Part shown: positions 2,982-59,445 of the stretch, piece by piece
Layout: each line of letters opens with the position of its first letter
How positions within the stretch are numbered: position 1 is the first letter of the stretch
Assembly: GCA_030390025.1 (NCBI GenBank)
Contig: CM059432.1
Location: 44,952,001-45,016,000 of the forward strand
Reading direction: 5' to 3'
Length of the DNA stretch: 64,000 nt
DNA from: Squalus acanthias
Taxonomy: Eukaryota
Notes under the pieces: model-generated
What the model was told of the DNA's origin: nothing
Database searches by the model: none
What the model saw: only the letters and a program-made list of their open reading frames with translations
Translations under genes and position numbers: made by a program

Positions 2982-4181
2982 TGTTTAATCGGAGTTTAGG
3001 ACAGAATATAACACACTAGTTATACAGCAAAAACATACGACCGTGACAAATAGCTGGTACTGGACCTGATCGGACAGACGGCTGGCGTGCACGAACAATT
3101 CTTATTTGTTCTCCTTCTTGTCTCACGTTTCTCTCTCTCTTTCTCTGAACTACCCAAGAGTGTTAGACTAGGGTCCACATGGGTCCACTCTCTGAATAGT
3201 GTTAGACCACCGTTTGCACTCTTGGGAGCCCCTCGCTCCACGGTCTGAGCTAAGAGTTCTTTAGCTCTTCCTTTTATTCTCTTTTTAGGGGTGGGCCTGA
3301 GGTAGAATAATGGATAAGACCATTTAACCTATAGAGGTTCCCCTTAATACATGGTGCCCAATGGCATGTCGAGTTCTTTGTCTAAACTATGAAAAAAGGG
3401 TCAATCCTCCTGTTATCTCCCACCTGTCAGGAATCTTCTCACAACCATTACATATGCTTTCTGTACTTGAACAATCATAGCCTTAAAGCATGTGGAGGAC
3501 AGTCTTCCCTTATCTCATCTGGCCCTTTCCTTCCAAAGCAACAGTCTCTTATCTCATCCTGTCTTGTCCCCCCTGGTGCAGCCAGTGCATGTACCAGGCA
3601 CAGCTTTGGGCCATTAAATCAGAGGCCCAAGTCTTACTCAACCAGCTGCCATTCAAACTATCTCCCTTTAATCTAACAGACTATTGCATCCTGAGATGGT
3701 ACCTTAACTCCCATAAATTCCTTCTAATCTATATCCTTTATATTAATTAACTTTTAATTATCTTCGCAAGCAGTTCTGTTAAACAAACTCCAAATTCTAC
3801 CTTAGCATTATAATATGGTTGTTAGTAATAATGGAAGAAACATAGGTTGGACCTTCATTGGCCAAATTAAAGACACAACAACAGAGTCAAAATCCTAAAC
3901 TTACAAACAACAGACAGCTAAGCCTTGAGGCAAGGTCATGCTATGGGCCCCTATGTGGGATGTTATGCATGCTCTAATCTAACTAATTAAAAAGACTGTC
4001 TCAATTTCTAATGTAAGTTTTCCAGGAAAACAAAACTTACACAGTTCCAGTAAAACATAACTTATACATTAACCCCTTACTTGTCTCGAGCACTAATACA
4101 ATCATTTAAACACAGTATTATTTGCATTACAGTTTCATTCGCATAACTATATATATTTTTAGGCACCCCTAGTTTCTAACA
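2982..4181. mobile_element. Candidate solo LTR (~1.2 kb)
   Basis: Starts TGTT and ends AACA. Flanks ATTG/ATTC match at 3 of 4 bases. No coding capacity and no second copy in the window. Confidence 0.4.
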
Positions 4182-5454
4182 ATTCAAACTGCTATTAGCT
4201 TAACACAAATTGACATTTGATTATTAGTGTAGGAAATGATGATCCACAAATTGAATTAAAGAATATTGTTAGGTTAGTGTAGCAGAACTTTACTCTCTAC
4301 TATTGTTTATTATTGCCAATCTAGCTGTACTTGATGCTGGTATGAGTTGCAAAAAGAAATGTTTCTTTCCACAGAGATATGAATGTAGCAAGCACTCCTT
4401 CTAAATGCTGTCTCTTCCTCATGGGATGCACAAGTGCACACATTCCTAGGGATCTGGAGCATCCCCAAGAAAACTATGAACTGTGCATTAAAGATGACAC
4501 ATTCTGGTCAATTTTTAAAACCTATCGCTGTGAAATATTGTCCCTCCTAATTGTTAGCATAAATTGCATTCACTTTACTTGAAGGACATCAAGAACATAA
4601 ATCTGGTTTGAAATTGGCTTTAAAGGTTTCAAAAATGGTAGTACCTGCAAAGTCAGAAATCCAATCCCAATCACACAATCTCTCTGTGCTGGTCAGTCCC
4701 CACCCCCCACCACTGCGCAGATACATCACCTCACACAGCTGTATAACTGTAATCTTTAATTGTATGCACCTTTCCGGCTGTCCCATGATGCAAAATAAAT
4801 GCACTGGGTTGCATATGTTATCAATGTCTACTTATGTCAGTGTTCTGAGCCTGGTGGAAATGAATAAACAAATTAAGAGCACTTTTTAAAAACAAAAGCC
4901 ATTGCTTTAATTATTTATACAGCAAATATTTACTTCTATGATCCCATTAAACATTCCAATATGGTACGGTTGGTACATTGATTTTAATTGTGAATGCCAT
5001 GTCCCCTTGTTCATTGCTTAGCTGATTTCCTACAGCTCAGTCTACATTTATGTTGGTAACAGTACTTGCTATCGCTATTTTGAACTTTGAGTTGACTTCC
5101 TGTGTCTTTGTAATTTTTTTGGTGTGATGATACAGTAATTGGAGGGAGATAGAGACAGAGTGAGGGAGGCTGAGGAGTCAGTCATTTTCTAGGTGTTTTT
5201 CTACATGTTATAATGTATTGATGTGAGAAAATAAACCAGTTAATGACATTTTCATTTTTCACAAAATGAGGGAGAGGAATTTTGATATGAGCTATTTCAA
5301 AGTACTGGTTATGAGCTATAGCAAAAATTAAAATAGAGGCAGGTATCAGGGCTAAAAATCTACGACAGCCTCACCCTAACATAAGTGAAGGGATACGGCA
5401 CTCCTGGAACCTCCGGTGCTGACCCTGCCAAAGTTCATGGGCAACCCATCCACC

Positions 5455-6287
5455 AGTTTAAACATCCACTCCCTGCACCACCAGTGCATCATGGCTGCAG
5501 TGTGTACAGGAAACTTTCGTTTATCCGGCACCCAAATATCCGGAATTCTCGCTTAACCGGCAAAAATCATCCTCCGAAAACTCCTCTCAAATAACCGGCA
5601 ATGTTGCCGAGTCGCAGTCGAGTCTCCGCGAACGCCGAGTGCTCCGAAAAATCCTCTCAAATAACCGGCAATGTTGCCGATCCCGAGTCCGAGTCCGAGA
5701 ACGCCGATTTAGTCAGTAGGGGTACTTTTCAAAAGTGCCACTACTCGGCCTCCTGGCGCTGTCGCAAGTCCGAAACATTGCAGTAGCAGGAGTAGATTCT
5801 CCTGTGCTGCTTGGAGTCTCTTTGTTAAAAATAGCCTCGGTAGATATAACTCTCTGTTATCCGGTACTTTCGATAAACCGGCACCACGCCGGTCCCGTCG
5901 ATGCCGGATAAACGAAAGTTTCCTGTACTATCCACAGGTTGAACTGCAGCAACTCGCCAAGGCTTCTTCAACAGCACCTCCCAAATCTGCAACCTCCTCC
6001 ACCTAGAAGAACAAGGGCAGCAAGTGCATGGGAACATCGTTAACTCCAAGTTCCCCTTCAAGTCACACACCATCCTGACTTGGACATGTATCGCTGTTCC
6101 TTCATCGTTGCTGGGTCAAAATCCTGGAACTCCCTATCTAGCAACATTGTGGGAGTACCTTCACCACATGGACGGCAATGGTTCAGGAAGAAGGCTCACC
6201 ACCAAATTCTCAAGGGCAGCTCGGGATGGGCAATAAATGCTGGCCTTGCCAGCGATACCCACATCCAGAGATTGAATATTTTAAAAA
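5455..6287 (+). mobile_element. 3' fragment of the tRNA-headed APE-RT LINE family, interrupted by a MITE
   Basis: Matches ~15245-15645 (FIVAGSKSWNSL; GGGCAATAAATGCTGGCCTTGCCAGCGA tail). Confidence 0.85.
5507..5925. mobile_element. Tc1/mariner (pogo/Tigger-like) MITE, 419 bp
   Basis: Perfect 24-bp TIR CAGGAAACTTTCGTTTATCCGGCA. TA TSD at 5505-5506 and 5926-5927. It interrupts an otherwise contiguous LINE tail. Confidence 0.9.
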
Positions 6288-7414
6288 CTGCCCTTCCGTA
6301 GCACTCCAGTTGGAATTATGGTGACAATGTGTAGCGAGGTTTATGGATTTTTGTCCCATTGTCTTCAAAAATTTATAATTCTTTTACAGTTCTTAAACTA
6401 TAGTTAGCAGTAAAGAGAAATTGATTTGATTACACTCAAAACTTTTACGTAGCATTCAGGAGGGCTTTGGAATTCAGATTCAATTTCAGAATAAGTTCTT
6501 GTTCTAGATCTCCACATTAATAGCAAGACAGTCAGCCCTGTCTCCCATTATATGTATGAAGAACAAAAATGTCATTCTTTATCTTGCATTCCAAAAAATT
6601 GTGCTTTATTTAGATTCTTCACCTAAAATACTGAACAATTCTTGCTGATTAAATGCATAAGTGACAAACAGACAGCAACCAAACAAGTACAGCTGGTTTG
6701 CTATTTTATTCTACATTTCATTCCAGCCCTTCGCTCTCTCTCACTAGAAACATTCTGACTTTAAAAGGTTCATTCTCAATGTCACAATGCATTAGCTGGT
6801 ATCTAGGTGAGTGATCACAGTGTCAAATCAGCAAGCAGCACTTACATTCAATAAAAAATGCTGCTCGCCACATTCTTAAAAACAAAATTAATTCTGCAAT
6901 GTGAATCTAAATGCATAGTATTGGCAAACTAAATATTTTGTGATCAATTACTGATGTAAAAAAATTTCTAAACAAGAATGTTTCTACTTTTAATATCACT
7001 TTGTTGTTAAGGATATTAAAATAAGCAATGCCTATGCTATTGTGAGCAATCCCAGGTCAGGTATATCACAGGTCTGGTGCAAGGTAAAGCTCCCTCTACA
7101 CTATCACAACAATGTGCTTTAACCAAAGTGAAGTGGTCAATTTGTGTCATATTTTAGCTTGGTGCTTTGAGCCTACTAAGAACTAAGATGTTGACAACCA
7201 GCAGACAAATTAAATTCAAAGCCATGTCCCAGAAGTGAAACTGCAGTGAGTTCACCCACTGCAACACCCTGTCCATCAATGAAGCTACATTATCAAAATG
7301 GATGCTTAACAGAGTTACAGGTAAAACATTATGGCATTGACAAAGGTGCAGCAAAAGGTTACCCATCTGTCACGGCATCAGACAAGCTACAAGGAGAGGT
7401 GACAGTTGCTGAGT

Positions 7415-7775
7415 TTGTTTAAGCTCGAGGAGAGGAGTCTGAGAGAGGATTTGTTTTCAGACTTCAAGATCCTTAGTTGTATAGACAAGTTGAACCCATA
7501 TACCACGGCCCTGAGAGGCATTTAATAAAGCTCAGAAGTGGGAAGGTGAGTAGAAAGATCAGAAGTAATTACTTCACACAGAGGATGGTGATTGCTTGGA
7601 ATGGATTGCCCAGGGAAGTGATCAAGATAGATAGCGTCATAATTTTAAGAGGGAGTTGGACAGGTGTCTGGTGACAAACTCAATTGAGGGGTATAGTGAA
7701 CATGTATTCTGTTTTTGAACTCTGGGGCCAGCTAGATAAACAAAATGATCTTTTCTGACCCTATATATTCTATGC
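7415..7775 (+). mobile_element. Old CR1 LINE 3' fragment
   Basis: NYFTQRMVIAWNGLP is the CR1 ORF2 C-terminal motif. Confidence 0.75.
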
Positions 7776-10168: not shown

Positions 10169-12400
10169 TATTAGTCTCTGCTCCTCTTATTCCTCCACAG
10201 GATGCTGAAATTAGTGTCCACAGAACTAAGACGCAATTAGTGTTGTGCCAGGAGGTTTCTGCAAGCACAAATGATGAGGACTCCACCCAGGGGACATCTG
10301 CTGAAGTCAGCATATCTACACTACCAAGGATGAAAAGGAGACGCCAGTGGACAAAAAAAAACCACTGGATCAGACATGGCACAGGTAAGGCAGAAGTAGA
10401 AGGCTAGGTAAGTAAACCACATTATTTGTTGGGATTCCATTGTTTGATATACCAACCATGAACTTTTCAGAAAGAAAGAATTGAATGCTACTGTGCTATG
10501 TTTTCATGGAGCTAAGATAACTTATACAGATAGTAGGTCTAAGGAGATGTCTAAGAGATCTACTATTACTGTTCATGTGGGAACAAACAATATACTGGAT
10601 AAAAAGTCTCAAATCATGAAACAAAGGTTTGAAAAAATCATCCATAACTTTAAACAGCATGGCAATCAGATAATTTTTTCAGATCTCCTACCAACCTGGA
10701 AAGATGCTTTTGAGTGGAACAGTAGAATCATGAGTTTCAACATCTGGCTATAAAGCTGGGTAAAGAAAAAGATGATATTTGCTGACAATTAGAGTGGGTT
10801 GGTTGGACAACTGGGATTTTACAATAAAGATAAGATTCATTTAAGTTAAGGTAGGTGTGAAATGTTTTACTCGCAATGTAAAGGATTCTCTCAGGGTTTC
10901 TTGAAACTGATCAGACCAGGGGGGCAAAACACACACCCTGCAAAATAACAGTGTGGGTCCAACCACAGAGAGTGCCATTTAGACACTCTGAGCATTAACT
11001 CACCTCTTCAGTTGAAACCACTACAAAAGGATGAAATCAGAGGACTAAATTATACCAAATTATCTTGGGATTTTATCAAGTGCTTCTATATAAAATGCTA
11101 GAAACATGAGGAATAAATTGACAGAACTTTGCTGCTACTGAAAACCTTGAACCACAGAAACCTAGCTGGATTTCGAAGCTGGGTCTAAATTTAAATATAC
11201 CTCAATATACATTGTTTAGGTAGAGGTTGGAGTTGTATCTTTGTTAGGAAAAGAATAAAAATACTAGAGTGAGGTGATACTGCAAGTAGGGAAATAGTGT
11301 GGCTTTAATTAGAGCTAATCAGAAATACTAGACTGCTCCTAGGCTTGTGTCTTAGACTACCAAACTGAACAGGAGGGGGATCTGCAGCTGTGTAAATCAA
11401 TAAGATAGTCACTGAAGAGAAGGTAGTAATGATGGGAGATTTCAATTATTCACTTATGAGGCAGATAAGCAAGAGACAGGCACAAGGGCTGGGAGACCCC
11501 CAAGAGACATTTATTGATACATGAAGAATGATTGCTTCTTAATTCAACATGTGAGGATGAGATCTAAGAAGGGATAATATCTTGGAATTAGTGCTTAGTA
11601 ATGAGTCACAGCTGGTAGGTGACCGAGAGACAAGTAAATATCCTGCAGATTTACACCACTCCATTATAAGACTTAAATTATGGGGATGTAGCGAGTTTAG
11701 GGTTAATAGTAAGCTAGTGCCATATTTTTTAAAAGGCTCAATTTACAGAAATGAAAAGAGATTTAATGGCAGTTAGGTGAGTGCAAGAAGGAGGTGAGGA
11801 TGATTGTAACATAAAAAATAAATGGGATTTTTTTTTAAATCCTGAAGGTTTCTGAAGCCTTATATATTCCTATGAGGAGGAGAAGAGTATATAATGAGAG
11901 AAAGTCACAATAGCTTCATAGAGAATTAATTTGGCAACTTGTGCTCAAAAAGAAATATTTTAAGACTTATATAATATCTAATAGACTTTCAAACAGCAAA
12001 CGGTATAAAACACAGCATTGACAAAAAGTATTAGGCAAGCTAACATTAATCTGGGGAGGAGGATAGTGGGAAATAGCCAAAATAATGGGAAGCATTTTTG
12101 TGCTTATGTTAGAACTGAGAGGTCGATTAGAAAACAAACAACATCCCCCTAGAGTGAGTTGGGGAGGATTATAAACGATGACAAGAGCATAGCAGAAGAT
12201 TTGAACAGATACTTTCGGCAGAACTTTTGGGAAGGACAATTGGGCGAGGGTATTTAATGGGCGGCTGGTCTGCTACCGTCCGTTTTATGCCCCAGCCAAA
12301 GTTGAAAGATTCGGCTTTGTATTGTTTTTAACTATGAGAAGGTTGGTTTTGATCCTTGCAATACAGATAAAATTGAAACTCAAATGAATTGCTTATACAT

Positions 12401-15400
12401 AAGTGGGAACGGTAGCGTAGTGGTAATATCACTGGGCTAGTAATCCAAAGGCCTGGACTAATGATCCAGAGACGTGAGCTCAAATCCCACCATGGCAGCT
12501 GGGGAATTTAAATTTAGTTAATTAAATAAATCTGGAATAAATACTAATATCAGTAATGGTAACCATGAAACTATCAGATTGTCGTAAAAACTCATCTGGT
12601 TCACTAATGTCCTTTAGGGAAGGAAATCTGCCGTCCTTACCTGGTCTGGCCTATATGTGACTCCAGACCCACAGCAATGTGGTTGACTCTTAACTGCCCT
12701 CTGAAATGGCCTAGCAAATCACTCAGTTGTAACTAACCGCTACAAAACAAAATAATAAGAATGAAACCAGACGGACCACCCGGCATCGACCTCGGCACCG
12801 GCTATGGACACGGCAACGGCACACCCAGCCCAGTCGACCCTGCAAAGTCCTCCTCACCAACATCTGGGGACTTGTGCCAAAATTGGGAGAGCTGTCACAC
12901 AGACTCGTCAAGCAACAGCCTGACATAGTCATGCTCACAGAATCATACCTTTCAGCCAATGTCCCAAACTCCTCCATCACCATCCCTGGGTATGACCTGT
13001 CCCACCGGCAGGACAGACCCACCAGGGGTGGTGGCACAGTGGTATACAGTCAGGAAGGAGTGGCCCTGGGAGGCCTCAACATTGACTCCGGACCCCATGA
13101 AGTCAAGCATGGGCAAGGAAACCTCCTGTTGATTACCACCTACCACCCTCCCTCAGCTGATGAATCAGTACTCCTCCATGTTGAACACTACTTGGAAGAA
13201 GCTGAGAGTAGCAAGGGCACAGAATGTATTCTGGGTGGGGGACTTCAATGTCCATCACAAGAGTGGCTCGGTAGCACCACTACTGACCGAGATGGCCGAG
13301 TCCTGAAGGACATAACTGCCACTCTGGGCCTGCGACACGAGGGAAAAATCTACTTGACCTCGTCCTCACCAATCTAATGTCGCAGATGCATCTGTCCATG
13401 ATGGTAGCAGTGAACACCGCACAGTCATTGTGGAGACGAAGTCCCGACTTCACACTGAGGACACCCTCCATTGTGTTGTATGGCACTACCACCATGCTAA
13501 ATGGGATGGATTCAGAACAGATCTAGCAGTTCAAAACTGGGCTTCCATGAGGCGCTGTGGGCCATTAGCAGCAGCAGAATTGTATTCCACCACAATCTGT
13601 AATCTCATGGCCTGGCATATCCCTCAATCTACCATTACCACCAAGCCAGGGGACCAACCCTGGTTCAACAAGGAGTGTAGAAGAGCATGCCAGGAGCAGC
13701 AGCAGGCGTACCTAAAAATGCGGTGCCAACCTGGGGAAGCTGCAACACAGGACTACATGCATGCTAAAAAGCGGAGACAGCATGCTATAGACAGGGCTAA
13801 GCGATCCCACAATCAATGGATCAGATCAAAGCTCTGCAGTCCTGCCACATCCAGTCGTGAATGGTGGTGGACCATTAAACATCTAACGGGAGGAGGAGGC
13901 TCCAAGAATATCCCCATCCTCAATAATGGTGGAGCCCAGCACATGAGTGCAAAAGACAAGGCTGAAGCGTTTGCAACCAACTTCAGCCAGAAGTGCCGAG
14001 TAGATGATCCATATCGGCCTACTCCCGAGGTCCCCACCATCACAGTAGCCAGTCTTCAGCCAATTCGATTCACTCCACATGATATCAAGAAACGGCTGAG
14101 CGCACTGGATACAGCAAAGGCTATGGGCCACGACAACATCCCGGCTATCGTGCTGAAGACTTGTGCTCCAGAACTAGCCGTGCCTCTAGCCAAGCTGTTC
14201 CAGTACAGCTACAACACTGGCATCTATCCGACAATGTGGAAAACTACCCTGTCCTGTCCACAAAAAGCAGGACAAATCCAACCCGGCCAATTACTGCCCC
14301 ATCAGTCTACTCTCAATCATCAGCAAAGTGATGGAAGGTGTCATCGACAGTGCTATCAAGTGGCACTTGCTCACTGATGCCCAGTTTGGGTTCCGCCAAG
14401 ACCACTCGGCTCCCGATCTCATTACAGCCTTGGTCCAAACATGGACAAAGGAGCTGAATTCCAGAGGTGAGGTGAGAGTGACTGCCCTTGACATCAAGGC
14501 AGCATTTGACCAAGTGTGGCATCAAGGAGCCCTCGTAAAACTGAAGTCAATGGGAATCAGGGGGAAAACACTCCACTCGCTGAGTCATACATAGCACAAA
14601 GGAAGATGGTTGTGGTGGGTGTAGGTCAATCATCACAGCCCCAGGACATCGCTGCAGGAGTTCCTCAGGGCAGTGTCCTAGGCCCAACCATCTTCAGCTG
14701 CTTCATCAATGAGCTTCCCTCCAACATAAGGTCAGAAATGTGGATGTTCGCTGATGACTGCACAGTGTCCAGCGCCATTCACAACTCCTCAGATAATGAA
14801 GCAGTCCATGCCCGCATGCAACAAGACCTGGACAACGTTCAGGCTTGGGCTGATAAGTGGCAGGTAACATTCGTGCCACAGAAGTGCCAGGCAATGACTA
14901 TCTCCAACAAGTGAGAGTCTAACCACCTCCCCTTCACATTCAATGGCATTACCATTGCCGAATCCCCCACTTTCAACATCCTGGGGGTCACCATTAATCA
15001 GAAACTTAACTCGGCCAGATACATAAATACTGTGGCATCAAGAGCAGGTCAGAGGCTAGGTATTCTGCGGCGAGTGTCCCACCTCCTGACTCCCCAAAGT
15101 CTTTCCACCATCTACAAGGCACAAGTAAGGAGTGTGATGGAATACTCTCCACTTGCCTGGATGAGTGCAGCTCCAACAACACTCAGGAAGCTCGACACCA
15201 TCCAGGACAAAGCAGCCGCTTGATTGGCACCCCATCCACCACCTTAAACATTCACTCCCTCCACCACCAGCGTACCGTGGCTGCAGTGTGTACCATCTAC
15301 AAGATGCACTGCAGCAACTCGCCAAGGCTTCTTCAGCAGCACCTCCCAAATCCGCGACATCTTCCACCTAGAAGGACAAGGGCAGCAGGCGCATGGGAAC

Positions 15401-15650
15401 ACCACCAGCTCTAAGTTCCCCTCCAAGTCACACACCATCCTGGCTTAGAAGTATATTGCCGATCCTTCATCGTCGCTGGGTCAAAATCCTGGAACTCCCT
15501 CCCTAACAGCACTTTGGGAGTACCATCACCACAGGGACTGCAGTGGTTCAAGAAGGCGGCTCACCACCACCTTCTCAAGGGCAACTAGGGATGGGCAATA
15601 AATGCTGGCCTTGCCAGCGACGCCCAGATCCCATAAACAAATTAAAAAAA
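12401..15650 (+). mobile_element. Near full-length single-ORF non-LTR retrotransposon (CR1-group, L2/Crack/Daphne-like) with a tRNA-derived 5' head
   Basis: A box TAGCGTAGTGG (12413) and B-box-like GAGCTCAAATCC (12477), then APE and RT, then an A-rich end. Possible TSD ACAT at 12397-12400 and 15651-15654. Confidence 0.9.
12733..15588 (+). pseudogene. Frameshifted APE endonuclease + reverse transcriptase ORF of the tRNA-headed LINE
   Basis: Motifs across frames: [69 protein letters not shown]. Stop TAG at 15586-15588. Confidence 0.9.
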
Positions 15651-16159
15651 ACATCTCAAAGGAAAGAGTGAAAATTAAAAAGGCATAAGATTTTTTTTTA
15701 AATGCAGCAGAGCCATATTTATTTTATGCTAGGATACTGAAGGAAGTGGAAAAGTTGTGACTGATGACCTAATAAATATTTTGGGGGAAATGCCAGATGA
15801 TTGCAGGAAGGCACCTGCAGTGTTATTTTTTTTAAAGGATTAAAATCACAACCTGGGAACAATAGACCTGTGAGTTTAACCTCCGTGATGGGAGGTTACT
15901 AAAAAACATCATTAGAGATATTGTAAATGATCATGTAGAATTGTGAGGCTTGATGGGGGATACTCAACATGCATTAAGAAAACAAAGATCATGTTTAACA
16001 AACCTGCTCCACTAAGAAGTCACTAAAACAGTGGCTCAAAGAAATCCAATAGATGTCTTCAAGATTTTCCAAAAAGCTTTCAATGAAATGCCTCATGAGG
16101 CATTGTGTGCTAAATTGAAGTCCTATGGTGTCATGGGTGAGATGGTAAGATGGACCAGG

Positions 16160-26366: not shown

Positions 26367-27600
26367 TTAAGTAAATCTGGCCATGATGAGGCCATCCCTG
26401 GCCTCCCGGACAGCAATGTGCGCCGCTGCTGGTGCTACCTGCATCTCATGTTCCTCCTCCTCCGGCTCGTCTTCTACCTGCTTGTCCTCCTCCTCTTTCT
26501 CCTCTGAAGAGGCTGTGTGCTATGCTCCTCCTGCAGCTCCAATCCTCGCTGCTGTGCTATGTTGTGCAGCGTGCAGCAGACAACGATGATTCTGGAGACC
26601 CTGGCTGGTGTGCACTGAAGGGCTCCTCCAGATCTGTCAAGGCATCTGACGCGTATCTTCAGCATGCCTATTGCTTGCTCTATGACACATCTGGTGGAGA
26701 TGTGGCTCTCATTATAATGCTCCTCGGCCTCAGTACTTGGCCTCCTCAAGGGTGCAATGAGCCACGTCTTCGGTGGATAGCCCTTGTCTCAAAGCAGCCA
26801 GCCGATAAGTCTGTTTGGAGTAGCGAAGAGCTGAGGGAGGGTGGACTGGCGCAACACAAAAGAGTCATGACAGCTGCCAGGGAATCTGGTGCACTCATGC
26901 ATAATCATCTTTTTGTGGTTGCAGACGAGCTGCACATTGAAGGAGTGGAAGCCCTTCCGGTTCACAAACACTCCTGGGTGATGATGGGGTGCCATATGTG
27001 AGCATATGTGTGCAGTCGATGATGCCCTGTGGGAAGTCAGCCAGAGCCACAAAGCCGAGTGCCCACTCAGTAACACTGTCTTCATTAGTGGCAAAGTTGA
27101 TATAATTGGCTGACTTGCGAAACATGGCATCGGTCATCTGGGTGATGCATCTCTGGGCGTCCGACTGCGAGATCCTGCAAATGTCTGCTACAGATCCCTG
27201 GAAGGAGCCTGAGGCGAAGAAGTGGAGGGCGGTGGTGACTTTGACAGCCACTGGTAAGGCGTGTCCACCAGGTCCTCTGGGTAGCAGGTCTTCTTCCAGC
27301 AAGCTACAAATGTCTGCAACGACCTGGCGCAATAGTCTGAGCCTCCTGAAGCACTACTGCTCAGTCATGTTGAGGACACTCATCCTCTGCCTGTATACCC
27401 TGTGTTGGGGGTATTGCCTCCGGTGCTGTGCAGCCCTGTGGTGCCCCCCTCTCTCCTGTGGAGCATCAGGTCATTGAGGAGAAGGTTGCTGTTGGGGTTG
27501 CTGCTGCTGGTGTTGATGCTGTTGTGGCTCATCTTGGTCCGGTTCTGAGGACCATGGTGAGACAGTATAAGAAGCACCTATGCTGATGTAGTAGATGGCA
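26367..27600 (-). pseudogene. Harbinger (HARBI1-like) DDE transposase, frameshifted
   Basis: [91 protein letters not shown]. Confidence 0.92.
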
Positions 27601-46166: not shown

Positions 46167-47761
46167 TTTTATTTTATTGATTCATGGGATGTGGGCATCG
46201 CTGGCAAGGCCAGCATTTATTGCCCATCCCTAATTGCCTTTGAGAAGGTGGTGGTGAACCGCATTCCTGAACCGCTGCAGTCCCTGTGGTGAAGGTATTC
46301 CATAGTGCTGTTAGGGAGGGAGTTCCAGGATAGTGACCCAGCGATGATGAAGGAATGGTGATATATTTCCAAGTCAGGATGGTGTGTGACTTGGAGGGGA
46401 AGTTGGAGGTGGTGGTGTTCCCATGCACCTGCTGCCCTTGTCCTTCTAGGTGGTAGAGGTCACTGGTTTGGGAGATGCTGTCGAAGAAGCCTTGGTGAGT
46501 TGCTGCAGTGCATCTTGTAGATGGTACACACAGTAGCCACGGTGAGCCTGTGGTGGAGGGAGTGAATGTTTAAGGTGGTGGATGGGGTGCCAATCAAACG
46601 GGTTGCTTTGTCCTGGATGGTGTCGAGCTTCTTGAGTGTTGTTGGAGCTGCACTCATCCAGGCAAGTGGAAACTATTCCATCACACTCCTGACTTGTGCC
46701 TTGTAGATGGTGGAAAGGCTTTGGGGAGTCAGTAGGTGAGACACTTGTCGCAGAATACCCAGCTTCTGGAGCCGAGTGGTCTTGGCGGGACCCAAACTAA
46801 GCATCGGTAGCAGGTTATTGTTGAGTAAGTGTCGCTTCATAGCACTGTCGACGACACCTTCCATCACTTTGCTGATGATTGAGAGTAGACTGATGGGGTG
46901 GTAATTGACCAGATTGGATTTGTCCTGCTTTTTGTGGACAGGACATACCTGGGCAATCTTCCACATTGACAGGTAGATGCCAGTGTTGTAGCTGTACTGG
47001 AACAGCTTGACTAGAGGCGCTGCTAGTTATGGAGCATAAGTCTTCAGCAAGACAGCCGGGATGTTGTCGGGGCCCGTAGCCTTTACTGTATCCAATGCAC
47101 TCAGCCATTTCTTGATATCACGTGGAGTGAATCGAATTGGCTGAAGACTGGCTTCTGTGATGGTGGGGACCTCAGAATGAGGCTGAGATGGATTATCCCC
47201 TTGGCACTTCTGGCTGAAGATGATTGAAAATGCTTCAGCCTTGTCTTTTGCACTTGCATGCTGGGCTCCTCCATCATTGAGGATGGGAATGTTCATGGAG
47301 CCTCCTCCTCCCGTTAATTGTTTAATTGTCCACCACCATTCACGACTCGATGTGACAGGACTGCAGAGCTTTGATCTGATCCGTTGGTTGTGGAATCGCT
47401 TAGCTCTGTCTATAGCATGCTGCTTCCATTGTTTAGCATGCATGTAGTTCTGTGTTGCAGCATCCACAGGTTGGCACCTCATTTTTAGGTATGCCTGGTG
47501 CTGCTCCTGGCATGCTCTTCTGCGCTCCTCATTGAACCAGCGTTGGTCCCCTGGCTTGATGGTAATGGTAGAGTGAGGGATATGCCAGGCCATGAGGTTA
47601 CACATTGTGGTGGAATACAATTCTTCTGCTGCTAATGGCCCACAACACCTCATGGATGCCCAGTTTTGAGCTGCTAGATTGTTCTGAATCTATCCCATTT
47701 AGCATGATGGTAGTGCCACACAACACAATGGAGGGTGTCCTCAGTGTGAAGACGGGACTTT
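46167..47761 (-). mobile_element. 5'-truncated, internally deleted copy of the tRNA-headed LINE family
   Basis: Matches 13440-14420 and 15050-15645; deletion junction at ~46768. Confidence 0.92.
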
Positions 47762-48899
47762 GATTGGATTCTTCACACTCTACTGCAGATAATGCTACAA
47801 GTCAATACCTTAATCTTTAGGATGACTCTAGCTGGACAAGAAATGGAAAGCGGAATAGTGCCCTGTGCTGGTGAGTTGCGTAATTTTAGCAGGTTAAACT
47901 CTAGCAACAATCCCTGAACAAACTTGAGAGTCCCTAAACCTTGCCAACATATGCTGAAATTCTCTGGCCTTAGGTAAGTGAGATGTGTTTCTACGTTCCA
48001 TATCCAGCAAATAGAAACTCTACTTAGGTGGATTTCTTAGTAGCTGGGCTTGGAGATTCTTAAGCTTGGTGATGAGTTGCCATGCATCAGAGAACTAGCT
48101 ACCCAAAAAACAATTAAAAGCTCTTGCTGAACACATGATCACCAGAATGGGTTTCGGCATGATTGTTTTATTTCTTGGCTATATTACAAAGCACTGGAAT
48201 CCACTATTGAAAACTTTGTTTATTTATTTGTCAAGATATTTGTACATTGCATAGATTTTGACATTGTGCACTTCCAAGTAAGCTGCCTTTATATTACATC
48301 TAGATTAATTTCAAGTTGCTCTGTTTGTGCAGTATATGATAGCTCAAGTTCTAACTCTTTCTTCACCAACTCTTCAGGGCTATGTTCTCTTGTCTATGCT
48401 ATTCCTTTCCCACATCAATGATTTCTAACCATATCTACTTTTTTGCCTATAGTATCACTCTGCTATTGACTTCCATCAGATCACACACCATCAGAGCAGA
48501 CTCCATTCAGCTTGCAATGTGCTTTGTTGAATCACTAAATCATGATCTCCTCCATGTTTTTTATAACAGGGCAATGGAAAGCAACAGGTTGGATTTTGAT
48601 TTTGTGAGGAATGCGTTGGACAGGTTATGGCTTTCCATGAGATCTCCCCGTTCCTCTGACTTTGGTCTTTTGGCATCCGGCAACAACAACTTGCATTTAT
48701 AGTAGCGGTAGATTTTCCTCACAAGCTGTCTTTGGATGGCCAATAGTTCCGACAGGAGGCCCAGTGATGACCGAGCTCATTAACATACAACTGGCGGGCT
48801 CGGCAAAAAGGGGCAGCGTTCCGGGTCCGGGCAGCCACAATGTCAGGCCAGACTCTGGGCCAGGAAAAGGAGATGAGCTCCATTCTAGGGAGGGGGCTC

Positions 48900-49537
48900 C
48901 TGCTTTGCCGTGGATGGTGTCGAGGGCCGCTCCCTCCCGACTGTATACCACTGTGCCACCACCTTTGATGGGTCTGTCCTGCTGGTGGGACAGGATATAC
49001 CCAAGGATGGTGATGGAGGAGTCTGGGACATTGGCTGAAAGGTATGATTCTGTGAGTATGACTATGTCAGGATATTGCTTGACTAGTATGTGGGAGAGCT
49101 CTCCAAATTTAGGCACAATTCCCAAGATGTTAGTGAGGGGGACTTTGCAGGGTCAACTTGGCTTGGTGTGCCTTTGTCGTGTCCGGTGCCTAGGTCGATG
49201 CCGGGTGGTCCGTCCAGTTTTATTCTTAGTATAGTTCTTTGTAGCATTTGGTACAACTGAATAGCTTGCTAGGCCATTCTCAGAGGGCAGTTAAGAGTCA
49301 TTGCTGTGGGTCTGAAGTCACATGTAAGGGAAGATTTCCTTTCCTAAAGGACATTAGGGAATCAGATGGGTTTTTAACGACAATTCAATAGTTTTACCAT
49401 TATTGAGCTAGCTTTTTATTCCAGATTTATTGAATTAACTGAATTTAAATTCCCCGAGGTGAGATTTGAACTCAAGATTCTGGATCATCAGTCCAGGATT
49501 ACTCGTCAAGTAACATAACCACTATGCTACTGTACCT
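48900..49537 (-). mobile_element. Second copy of the tRNA head + 5' UTR + APE start of the same LINE, joined to a short 3'-region piece
   Basis: The minus strand has TAGCATAGTGG (A box) and GAGTTCAAATC (B box), then PDIVILTESYLSANVPD, then jumps to CTCGACACCATCC (cf. 15191). Confidence 0.88.
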
Positions 49538-57200: not shown

Positions 57201-59445
57201 TATTGACTTGGATAGAGAACTGGTTGGCGGACAGAAAGCAGAGAGTAGGAATTAATGGGTCTTTTTCTGAGTGGCAAGCAGTGACTAGTGGGGTACCGCA
57301 GGGATCGATCCTTGGACCCCAGCTATTCACAATATACATTAATGATCTAGATAAGGGAACTAAATGTAATATCTGCAAGTTTGCAGATGACACAAAGCTG
57401 AGTGGGATTGTGTGCTGCGAGGAGGATACCGAGAAACTCCAGGATGATTTGGACAGGTTGGATGAGTGGGCAGAAGCGTGGCAGATGCAATATAAGATGG
57501 ATAAGTGCGAGGTTATCCACTTTGGTGTCAAAAACAGAAAGACAGACTATTATCTGAATGGCAATAGATTGGGAGAAGGGGAAGTGCAACGAGACCTGGG
57601 TGTCCTTGTGCACCAGTCACTGAAAGTAAGCATGCAGGTGCAGCAGGCGGTGAAGAAGGCAAATGGTATGTTGGCCATTATAGCGAAAGGGTTTGAGTAT
57701 AGGAACAGGGATGTCCTGCTGCAGTTGTACAGGGCCTTGGTGAGACCACACCTTGAGTACTGTGTGCAGTTTTGGTTGCCTTATCTGAGGAAGGATGTTC
57801 TTGCCATGGAAGGAGTTCAGCGAAGATTCACAAGGCTGATACCTGGGATGGCAGGAATGACATATGAGGAGAGATTGGGTTGATTGGGCTTATACTCGCT
57901 GGAGTAGCGAAACATATAAAATTCTGACAGGTCTGGACAAACTAGATGCAGGAAGAATGTTCCCGATGGTCGGAGAGTCCAGAACCAGGGATCATAATCT
58001 AAGGATAACGGGTAAGCCATTTAGGACAGAAATGAGGAAGAATTTCTTCACCCAGAGAGTGGTGAACATGTGGAATTCTCTAACACAGAAGGTAGTTGAG
58101 GCCAAGTCATTAAATATATTTAAGAATGAGTTAGATATATTTCTTAAAGTTAAAGGTATCAAGGGATATGGGGAGAAGGCAGGTACAGGGTACTGAGTTT
58201 GGATGATCAGCCATGATCTCATCGAATGGCGGAGCAGGCTCGAGGGGCTGAATGGCCTACTCCTGCTCCTATCTTCTATGTTTCTATGGATGAACAAATT
58301 CTGTAGTTCATCCATGCGATCTTTAAATGTTTGCCATTGCCGATCCACCGTCAACCCTTTAAGTAACATTCCCCAATCCATCCTAGCCAACTCGCGCCTC
58401 ATACCATCATACTTTCCTTTATTTAAATTCAGGACCCTAGTCTCTGAGTGAACTACTTCACTCTCCATCTTAATGAAGAATTCTATCATATTATGATCGC
58501 TCCTCCCCAAGGGGCCTCGCACAACAAGATTGCTAATTAATCCTTTCTCATTACATAATACCCAGTCTAAGATGGCCTGATCTCCAGTTGGTTCCTCGAC
58601 ATATTGGTCCAGGAAACCATCCCGTATACACTCTAGGAATTCCTCCTCCACAGTATTGTTACTAATTTGGTTAGCCCAATCTATATGTAGATTAAAGTCA
58701 CCCATGATAACTGCTGTGCCCTTATTGCACGCATCTCTAATTTCCCGTTTAATGCCATCCCCAACCTCAGCATTACTGTTTGGGGGTCTGTATACAACTC
58801 CCACTAACGTTTTCTGCCCCTTGGTATTTCTCAGCTCTACCCATACCGATTCCACATCATCAGAGCTAATATCCTTCCTTACTATTGTGTTAGTCTCCTC
58901 TTTAACCAGCAATGCTACCCCACCTCCATTTCCTTTTTGCCTGTCCTTCCTGAATATTGAATACCCCTGGATGTTGAATTCCCAGCCTTGGTCACCCTGG
59001 AGCCATGTCTCCGTGATCCCAATTATATCATATCCGTTTACATCTATTTGCGCAGCTAATTCATCCACCTTATTATGAATGCGCCTCGCATTAAGACACA
59101 GACCTTCAGGCTTGTTTTTTTAACACTCTTAGTCCATTTAAAATTATTGTTTACTGTGGCCATGTTTGATTTACACCCTTGATTTCTCTGCCTTCCACTT
59201 TTGCTTTTCTCCTTCCTGTCTTTTGTTTCAATTCTTGCTTCCTTTTCCTCTGTCTCCCTGCACAGGTTCCCAACCCCCTGCCATTTTAGTTTAAACCCTC
59301 CCCAACAGCACTAGCAAACACTCCCCCTAGGTCATCGGTCCCGGTCCTGCCCAGGTGCAAACCGTCCAGTTTGTACTGGTCCCACCTCCCCCAAAACCGG
59401 TTCCAATGTCCCAGGAATTTGAATCCCTCCCCCTTGCACCATTCT
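54257..59445 (-). mobile_element. CR1 family A copy (end of ORF1 + ORF2), split at 56209/58288 by an antisense CR1
   Basis: ...[12 protein letters not shown] (58288) continues as PVWHKNK (56209). Both halves closely match the 18933-25250 element. GGAT is duplicated at the two junctions. Confidence 0.92.
56210..58287 (+). mobile_element. 5'-truncated CR1 of a sister subfamily with a long open RT frame
   Basis: ORF 56168-57883 carries the RT motifs. It has its own TTCTATGTTTCTAT tail and differs from the host at many residues. Confidence 0.95.

Follow-up and report, generated by a model that had tools for sequence, protein, structure and literature searches.

We analyzed a stretch of 64,000 nucleotides of the Squalus acanthias genome (hereafter the window; GenBank assembly GCA_030390025.1, contig CM059432.1, positions 44,952,001 to 45,016,000 of the forward strand, read 5′ to 3′), which contains on the plus strand at 12405-15651 one decayed full-length copy (copy 1) of a 3.25-kb long interspersed element (LINE) with a single open reading frame (ORF) for an endonuclease and a reverse transcriptase. 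The 5′ end of this element is a tRNA-derived head that retains the A and B boxes of a type 2 RNA polymerase III promoter, and the sense strand behind it is free of runs of four T (T4). Copy 1 is a dead member of an old and abundant LINE family, and its reading frame is broken several times by frameshifts and stops. In this decayed copy the Pfam domain Exo_endo_phos matches 12733-13374 below its cut-off of 24.5 (21.6 bits, E 2e-4), and RVT_1 matches 14190-14911 (E 3.4e-13 and 1.4e-15). When nine natural full-length copies were aligned (mean pairwise identity 93.8%), one frame was open across all of them, running for 970 codons from 12733 to a TAG stop at 15586, in a family layout of 3.25 kb in total, with no ORF1 and a 3′ untranslated region (UTR) of about 60 bases. 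All 20 other copies were disrupted, and the longest open frame in those stretches measured 497 amino acids (aa). Full-length copies were sought in 19 stretches of the assembly beyond the window. A reverse transcriptase, an apurinic-type endonuclease upstream of it and graded 5′ truncation make the element a non-LTR (long terminal repeat) retrotransposon. The features of copy 1 and of its relatives in the window are listed here.

12405-12500, plus strand: tRNA-derived head and 5′ terminus of the element, beginning GGGAACGGTAGCG; weak Rfam tRNA match and copy alignment
12413-12423, plus strand: A box, TAGCGTAGTGG; fits the consensus TRGCNNAGTGG
12430-12471, plus strand: two tandem anticodon-arm-like units of about 21 bases, by eye
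12477-12487, plus strand: B box, AGCTCAAATCC in copy 1 and AGTTCAAATCC in 8 of 9 aligned copies; consensus GGTTCGANNCC
12501-12732, plus strand: non-coding leader, in common with the short interspersed element (SINE) form described below; stops in all frames up to 12730 are shared between copies
12733-15588, plus strand: main ORF, 970 codons and the TAG at 15586, endonuclease and reverse transcriptase; nine-copy alignment and Pfam
12761-12928, plus strand: short upstream ORF in the +1 frame, beginning MKPDGPPGIDLG, 48-55 codons; overlaps the start of the main ORF
15588-15632, plus strand: 3′ tail hairpin by minimum free energy, in common with the SINE form
15633-15651, plus strand: 3′ end, CATAAAC(A/G)AAT followed by an A/T tract, with a T run of 0-5 between copies
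48923-49537, minus strand: 5′ part of copy 2 (head, leader and ORF start), 80% identity to 12406-13067
46167-47760, minus strand: 3′ part of copy 2, without the equivalent of 14416-15050, 88-90% identity to 13439-14416 and 15050-15651
5434-6266, plus strand: two collinear 3′-only blocks (equivalent to 15220-15293 and 15289-15631), about 417 bases apart, 85-86% identity

The head of the element is derived from a tRNA

An initial annotation of the window had placed an A box at 12413 and a B box at 12477, and both are present at these positions, with 53 bases between them, a tRNA-like spacing near the 5′ end. The same annotation had located the element but set its start one base late: a G directly precedes GGAAC in 8 of the 9 copies shown from GGAAC onwards (L061, L073 and L076 are displayed from further inside and stand outside this count), which puts the 5′ terminus at 12405, the equivalent of tRNA position +1, seven bases before the A box. 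The A box is retained in 6 of the 9 aligned full-length copies, with one change each in L064, L076 and L078. A regular expression for the A/B pair matches L075 and copy 2 and misses copy 1 because of a private T-to-C change in the B box of the latter.

The Rfam tRNA model aligns weakly with 12412-12491 (17.4 bits, E 0.65, against a gathering score of 29), and the 24-base insertion in this alignment can be explained by the two apparent tandem units of about 21 bases at 12430-12471. This part of the head has the appearance of a tandem duplication of an anticodon-arm-like unit, and the full-length copy L060 is without about 20 bases there. No tRNA was called in the window by ARAGORN, or by Rfam at its gathering threshold, and among 30 other copies ARAGORN called a tRNA-Thr(AGT) in the heads of two. 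The predicted fold of the head was not significantly better than that of shuffled sequence (z -0.67 and -1.62), and on this ground we regard the head as a tRNA derivative that has kept its putative promoter boxes and not as a working tRNA shape. Downstream, the leader holds three poly(A)-signal hexamers at 12521, 12525 and 12536, 117-132 bases from the 5′ end, which are found in 7-8 of the 9 copies. Besides these, the sole AATAAA common to most copies is in the tail (15597), and one more shared ATTAAA is located in the ORF (13874).

The head is the 5′ end of the LINE family

We searched the window's own 3.7-Gb assembly with 12401-12900 as a query and obtained 9,642 first-look candidates; all 40 that were scored were 94-96% identical to it, spanned the head, the leader and the ORF start, and were located on many contigs. 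Since this query favours headed copies, the search was repeated with the ORF-only query 12790-13290 (4,192 candidates, 40 scored, 30 loci kept), and copy 1 was aligned to the loci. Among the 29 copies besides copy 1 in this sample, 10 reach head position 1, L060 being one of them, while the remaining starts lie at 10-24 (4 copies), 48-96 (6 copies) and 143-370 (9 copies). The upstream flanks of 16 shortened copies are mutually unrelated, and within the ORF-only sample there was neither an alternative 5′ UTR nor a cluster of 5′ ends at a headless start; the shortened copies are ordinary 5′ truncations. The family as a whole comprises numerous copies that share a 3′ end and are shortened to different degrees at the 5′ end, the starts being scattered over positions 1-370 and 3′ fragments lying at 5434-6266 of the window.

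Copy 2 (minus strand, 49536-48923 and 47760-46167), which had been taken for an independent copy with the same fusion, indeed has the same head, leader, ORF and tail between flanks that are unrelated to those of copy 1, and differs by a 1.16-kb foreign insert and one deletion. The junction in 40 of 40 scored matches and the 10 of 29 ORF-only copies that extend to position 1 uphold the view that the head is part of the LINE family, not a SINE that happened to lie next to it; in the ORF-only sample, no copy had a different 5′ UTR in place of the head. The link between head and ORF is clearly beyond chance. An exact 5′ end kept over thousands of copies calls for an internal promoter, and the A and B boxes are the sole recognisable candidate for one.

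A SINE is built from the same two ends

Contigs from two small sequencing runs of unknown type, X15 (the window's organism) and X17 (another organism), were aligned to 12300-15750. The summed contig depth in X15, which is not a copy number, was 17,600 over the head and 52,000-73,000 over the leader, fell to 3,600-7,500 in the initial 580 bases of the ORF and then climbed to 214,000 at the tail. In addition, many contig joints connect 12688-12737 with 15538-15579; the joint 12731-15578, for example, is found in 3 X15 and 6 X17 contigs. From these leader-to-tail joints, together with the excess depth over head and leader, it follows that a deletion form consisting of head, leader and tail, that is, a SINE, exists, and it outnumbers the 5′ part of the LINE several-fold. 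The depth profile of both runs, with a 5′-truncation gradient and surplus depth over the head and the leader, resembles that of repeats in genomic DNA, and we draw no conclusion about expression from it.

By its contig joints the deletion form fits the definition of a tRNA-derived SINE (SINE2). No copy of it was found in the approximately 360 kb of genome sequence examined, and the SINE is known here from the contig joints. The window element was itself considered as a SINE and ruled out as such, being 3.25 kb long and coding. Both forms end in the tail hairpin, for which 15575-15651 gave a minimum free energy of -23.7 kcal/mol (z -2.62) and which is likely to be the recognition site for the reverse transcriptase of the element. 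Among raw DNA reads from other organisms, X23 had 0 reads on the stretch and X22 had 163, of which 154 were partial. In organisms B-E, 0.44-0.60 of the sampled words were present, which may represent either the orthologous locus or other copies of the family.

The progenitor sequence lacked runs of four T

As the initial annotation had reported from reading by eye, 12401-15650 has no T4 on the sense strand; our count gave 0 runs, against 15 A4, 10 C4 and 8 G4, and the A4 positions listed there, like the AAAA at 47227-47230, are right. The 20 other copies (57,656 aligned bases) hold 12 T4 and 284 A4, with T4 absent from 12 of these copies. Three of the T4 runs (T4-T5; copy-1 coordinates 3236-3237) fall within the variable A/T tract at the 3′ terminus; the other nine are internal and occupy nine sites, none of which has a T4 in more than one copy. 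The internal T4 of copy 2 (47227-47230), which had been proposed to be a post-insertion change, is private to that copy. The lack of any internal T4 shared between copies shows that the progenitor sequence was T4-free.

The T4-T5 runs in the terminal A/T tract of 3 of the 20 copies (15640-15651; L061-L078) could serve as a terminator at the end of the element. Past the 3′ end, copy 1 is followed by a T9 at a distance of 46 bases, and T4-T9 runs lie within 5 bases in 3 of 11 other copies, a frequency no higher than expected from the genome's 6.9 T4 per kb.

The absence of T4 is real, and its significance is modest and depends on the null model (P 0.009 to 0.16). The initial annotation had assumed about 22% T and 5-6 T4 by chance; T is in fact 20.4%, and this expectation is an overestimate. 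Mononucleotide shuffles of the whole element gave a mean of 4.46 T4 and a probability of finding none, P(0), of 0.009, whereas dinucleotide shuffles gave a mean of 1.72 and P(0)=0.16. In shuffles of codon order and of synonymous codons, which were confined to the ORF, the means were 1.5-2.8 per copy, with P(0)=0.06-0.18 across seven T4-free copies. That selection for read-through, which had been put forward as the explanation, is needed to account for the zero count does not follow from the codon-aware and dinucleotide figures. Runs of three T are likewise scarce, with 5-10 per copy against 11-15 expected in the codon-aware shuffles (P 0.000-0.077 across copies), and A runs in the family are at expectation.

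Neighbouring LINEs and headless relatives

The statement that neighbouring LINEs carry many T4 held in general, their ORF pieces having 22 against 18.9 expected from composition, but failed for one 1.1-kb piece, LINE_F, which has none. Under synonymous shuffles, the seven neighbouring LINE ORF pieces in the window together showed 20 T4 against 25.2 expected. We considered LINE_F as a T4-free relative of the family and ruled this out, as it is of CR1 type with 23% endonuclease identity.

Relatives of the family were found in 80 metagenome contigs encoding proteins at 24-47% identity, of which 32 with an open frame of at least 700 aa were used for counts. ARAGORN found no tRNA in the 80 contigs, and a loose search for A and B boxes in them returned two chance pairs only, neither of them upstream of an ORF. 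These headless relatives do not show the T4 depletion of the family: the 32 carry 725 T4 against 535 expected, with 3-49 in each and zero in none. Equal depletion in headless relatives had been named in the initial annotation as a possible refutation, and the outcome of this check supports the annotation. The family also falls below all 32 on four T-related codon measures, namely Phe content (2.1% vs 2.4-6.8%), the TTR share of Leu codons (0.11 vs 0.12-0.60), the TTT share of Phe codons (0.20 vs 0.39-0.90) and T at codon position 3 (0.198 vs 0.218-0.463), a difference that is suggestive only, the hosts of the relatives being more AT-rich.

The protein and its start

Over 446 aa the protein shares 28% identity with a CR1-type LINE elsewhere in the window, and its identity with a bird reverse transcriptase, presumably also of CR1 type, is 34%. 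Database relatives numbered 2,017 at E<=1e-5; among the 120 listed, identity was 33-44% and length 849-1,573 aa, and most were single proteins of 850-1,200 aa, mostly on 3-5-kb contigs, carrying PF03372 and PF14529. The few named relatives among those listed were labelled jockey-like or reverse transcriptase. In a protein search, the matches to a 339-aa piece were confined to exonised fragments within Heterodontus francisci and Pristiophorus japonicus gene models. By pairwise identity, the family is probably to be placed in the CR1/L2/Rex1-like group, although its layout recalls RTE. A trait of the CR1/L2/Rex1 group is found here in the 3′ hairpin tail that is shared with the SINE (stringent type).

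The nine aligned copies have no shared in-frame ATG before codon 284 of the 970-codon main ORF. In 7 of the 9, an ATG in the +1 frame (12761) opens the upstream ORF of 48-55 codons that overlaps the start of the main ORF; the proteins of distant relatives start with Met. Since the main ORF is without a start ATG, its translation would have to begin in an unusual manner, through a non-AUG codon, a frameshift or re-initiation. Inspection by eye found no canonical slippery heptamer for a programmed -1 frameshift between the upstream and main ORFs.

Possible transcription by polymerase III and the alternatives

By sequence, the element has the traits of a type 2 polymerase III unit, with A and B boxes at tRNA-like spacing and no internal T4. 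Polymerase III initiation at the head would be the simplest way to regenerate the head in each cycle, and we regard it as a little less likely than not. In the mechanism that we propose, TFIIIC and TFIIIB would assemble on the internal A and B boxes, and RNA polymerase III would start at or just upstream of head position 1 and read through 3.25 kb into the flank, which the lack of T4 on the sense strand would permit. Templates of kilobase scale seem feasible for this polymerase, since ORF2 protein alone suffices for the retrotransposition of tagged Alu-neoTET constructs driven from the internal polymerase III promoter, as described in the part of that study drawn on here (PMC2666806). The reverse transcriptase would then recognise the 3′ hairpin and copy the polymerase III RNA, so that each new copy would carry its own promoter. 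As sources of the protein, rare translation of the polymerase III RNA and polymerase II read-through transcription of other copies may be considered. Action in trans on the tail, which mobilisation of the SINE requires in any case, would free the protein from having to be made from the polymerase III RNA. A further reading, which we put forward tentatively and with less than even confidence, is that the element is an autonomous LINE transcribed in full by polymerase III, whose sequence may have been shaped, with fewer Phe and fewer TT codons, to avoid terminators. On the same tentative reading, LINE and SINE would in effect represent a single transcription unit that either contains or lacks the ORF.

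Several points weigh against this reading. Polymerase III transcripts are uncapped and usually short, and protein production is unexplained for an ORF that has no start ATG. With TT frequency or codon use held fixed, the absence of T4 is not significant (P(0) 0.16 and 0.06-0.18, respectively). The shortage extends to runs of at least two T (87 against 108 expected), which avoidance of T4 alone does not explain; as both these runs and those of three T are low, the depletion is a general poverty in TT without a sharp cut-off at four. All sampled copies derive from one burst (93.8% identity), and the T4-free state consequently counts as a single observation. LINE_F (57995-59119, minus strand), a CR1-type endonuclease ORF piece of 1.1 kb, has 0 T4 where 3.8 are expected, so that a kilobase without T4 is evidently possible in an ordinary LINE. 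The X15 and X17 contigs cannot show the start, end or strand of transcription. Finally, in the parts of two studies that are used here, LINEs and their deletion derivatives are held to be polymerase II transcripts (PMC5786205; PMC2666806).

An alternative that we consider rather unlikely, although it deserves serious attention, is that the element is an ordinary polymerase II LINE with a SINE-derived 5′ UTR, the head and leader having been acquired by the LINE, or passed from it to the SINE, through 5′ switching or internal deletion. Transcription would then begin at an unrecognised internal initiator at position 1, and the lack of T4 would be a by-product of a C-rich, T-poor and TT-poor coding sequence, a version of events to which we give the same limited weight. 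The 970-codon ORF would be more easily translated from a capped mRNA. The shuffles agree with such a by-product (P(0) of 0.16 for dinucleotide and 0.06-0.18 for codon-aware models), as do the depletion of TT itself and the T4-free CR1 piece, in which TTC is preferred to TTT by 15 to 3. Exchange of LINE 5′ UTRs is also documented, in the portion of the preprint considered here (bioRxiv 10.1101/2022.11.04.512097). Against this, inspection by eye found no evident polymerase II start element at position 1, and the AT-rich segment 12510-12545 would set the start downstream of the head, so that progeny would lose it. Further points against this alternative are the three poly(A) hexamers 117-132 bases from the 5′ end and the place of the family as the extreme of 33 relatives in every codon measure related to T runs.

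The head might instead be a processing signal, if the element were co-transcribed with a host or upstream polymerase II RNA and RNase P cut at tRNA +1 to give a defined 5′ end, in analogy to the self-cleaving ribozymes at the 5′ ends of some LINEs; this proposal appears improbable to us. Copies do begin exactly at the tRNA +1 equivalent, seven bases before the A box, and there are known LINEs whose 5′ ends are processed by ribozymes (Ruminski et al. 2011, cited in the part of PMC5786205 used here), but the head folds no better than its shuffles (z -0.67 and -1.62), has no 3′ acceptor strand evident by eye and scores only 17.4 bits with the tRNA model, and the poverty in T runs would be left without a reason. 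Quite improbable, too, is repeated template switching, in which the enzyme of a headless master LINE would jump to the abundant SINE RNA within the shared leader, making the headed copies dead-end recombinants. The several-fold greater abundance of the SINE form and the approximately 230 bases of common leader would favour such jumps, and template switching is the accepted route by which SINEs exchange parts, according to the sections relied on of two reports (PMC5786205; PMC5499810). A headless master should leave a cluster of 5′ ends at its own start, whereas in the ORF-only sample 10 of 29 copies begin at position 1 and the others are spread over 10-24, 48-96 and 143-370. As for a SINE that came to lie beside a 5′-truncated LINE by chance or segmental duplication, the only point in its favour is the prior expectation that LINEs have no tRNA head; the same junction in 40 of 40 scored genomic matches on many contigs, the unrelated flanks of copies 1 and 2 and the ORF-only sample refute it, and its probability is negligible. 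Transcription by polymerase III remains the reading that we prefer, within the limits given above.

Comparison with known retrotransposons

Pairs of a tRNA-derived SINE and a partner LINE, such as HE1/HER1 of sharks and rays and UnaSINE1/UnaL2, share the tail, as set out in the part of the source consulted (PMC3747384). The present pair resembles them in its tRNA-type head with A and B boxes, its LINE-derived 3′ hairpin tail and a SINE that outnumbers the LINE. Whereas the partners in those pairs have only the tail in common, the present LINE also begins with the head and the entire body of the SINE. The SINE form appears unlike the V-domain of HE1, and on this ground HE1/HER1 was tentatively set aside as the identity of the present pair. 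Two-part LINE derivatives and SINEs with a LINE 5′ body (RTESINE/WALLSI, CoeSINE4; RIME/ingi) likewise consist of 5′ and 3′ parts joined by internal deletion, and in the portion of that work used here LINE 5′ contributions to SINEs are said to have been found only for RTE and Vingi (Kojima 2018, PMC5786205). The same portion assumes polymerase II transcripts for the LINE and the two-part form, with a tRNA head added later (PMC5786205). In contrast to those cases, the reverse transcriptase here is nearer to the CR1 type and the head is on the autonomous element.

L1Tc and NARTc of Trypanosoma cruzi share the 5′ internal promoter Pr77, a polymerase II promoter combined with a ribozyme. As in that pair, an autonomous element and a short partner here have a promoter-bearing head and a 3′ end in common, but the head is by its sequence a candidate type 2 polymerase III promoter. 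LINEs of the RTE clade are about 3.2 kb long and have one long ORF without ATG and a short overlapping upstream ORF. The present family is similar to this layout in its length of 3.25 kb, the absence of ORF1, the ATG-less main ORF, the overlapping upstream ORF (48-55 codons) and the brevity of its 3′ UTR, and differs in its protein, for which an alignment with CR1-type elements extends from the PWxN motif across the reverse transcriptase. LINE 5′ UTR switching, described for SolRTE in Nicotiana and for mammalian L1, also combines a LINE body with an exchangeable, promoter-bearing 5′ end; the 5′ ends recruited there are polymerase II promoters, and in the portion of that text used here terms for tRNA or polymerase III have 0 occurrences (bioRxiv 10.1101/2022.11.04.512097).

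None of the known systems compared here puts a tRNA head on an autonomous element. In the full-text literature searched, no tRNA-headed or polymerase III-transcribed LINE was described, Repbase, Dfam and subscription journals being outside the scope of that search. In the textbook division, LINEs are transcribed by polymerase II, and SINEs are transcribed by polymerase III and borrow only the LINE tail; here an autonomous LINE with thousands of copies begins with the complete head and body of its SINE. For the origins of SINEs the family offers a concrete intermediate, in which the SINE can be seen as the LINE minus its ORF, or the LINE as the SINE plus an ORF. It also raises the questions of whether polymerase III can drive an autonomous retrotransposon and how protein would be made from an uncapped RNA without a start ATG. 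If polymerase III is used, this would be a new mode of expression for an autonomous retrotransposon, and one might ask whether sequence composition would record the choice of polymerase. If polymerase II is used, the family would still be an unusual case of a LINE that recruited a SINE as its 5′ UTR.

Other observations

The insert of copy 2 (47761-48922, minus strand) is a 1.16-kb unrelated sequence that replaces the equivalent of 13068-13438, and a stretch in it ending ...CTATAAATGCAAGTTGTTGTTG resembles the tail of another shark SINE. In the 3′ flanks of copy 1 (15697-15705) and of L078, TTTTTTTTTAAATGC occurs near the end of the element and may be the edge of another repeat. No clear target-site duplication was seen by eye in the few other copies viewed. 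In L077 (about 910-966 and 4206-4501), a copy of the family is inserted within the inverted head and leader of another copy, and the two sides of the interrupted sequence overlap by about 20 bases (head positions 38-57), which resembles a target-site duplication. Elsewhere in the window, at 26477-27133 on the minus strand, two ORF pieces match DDE_Tnp_4, a Harbinger-type transposase domain (E 1e-12 and 1e-9).

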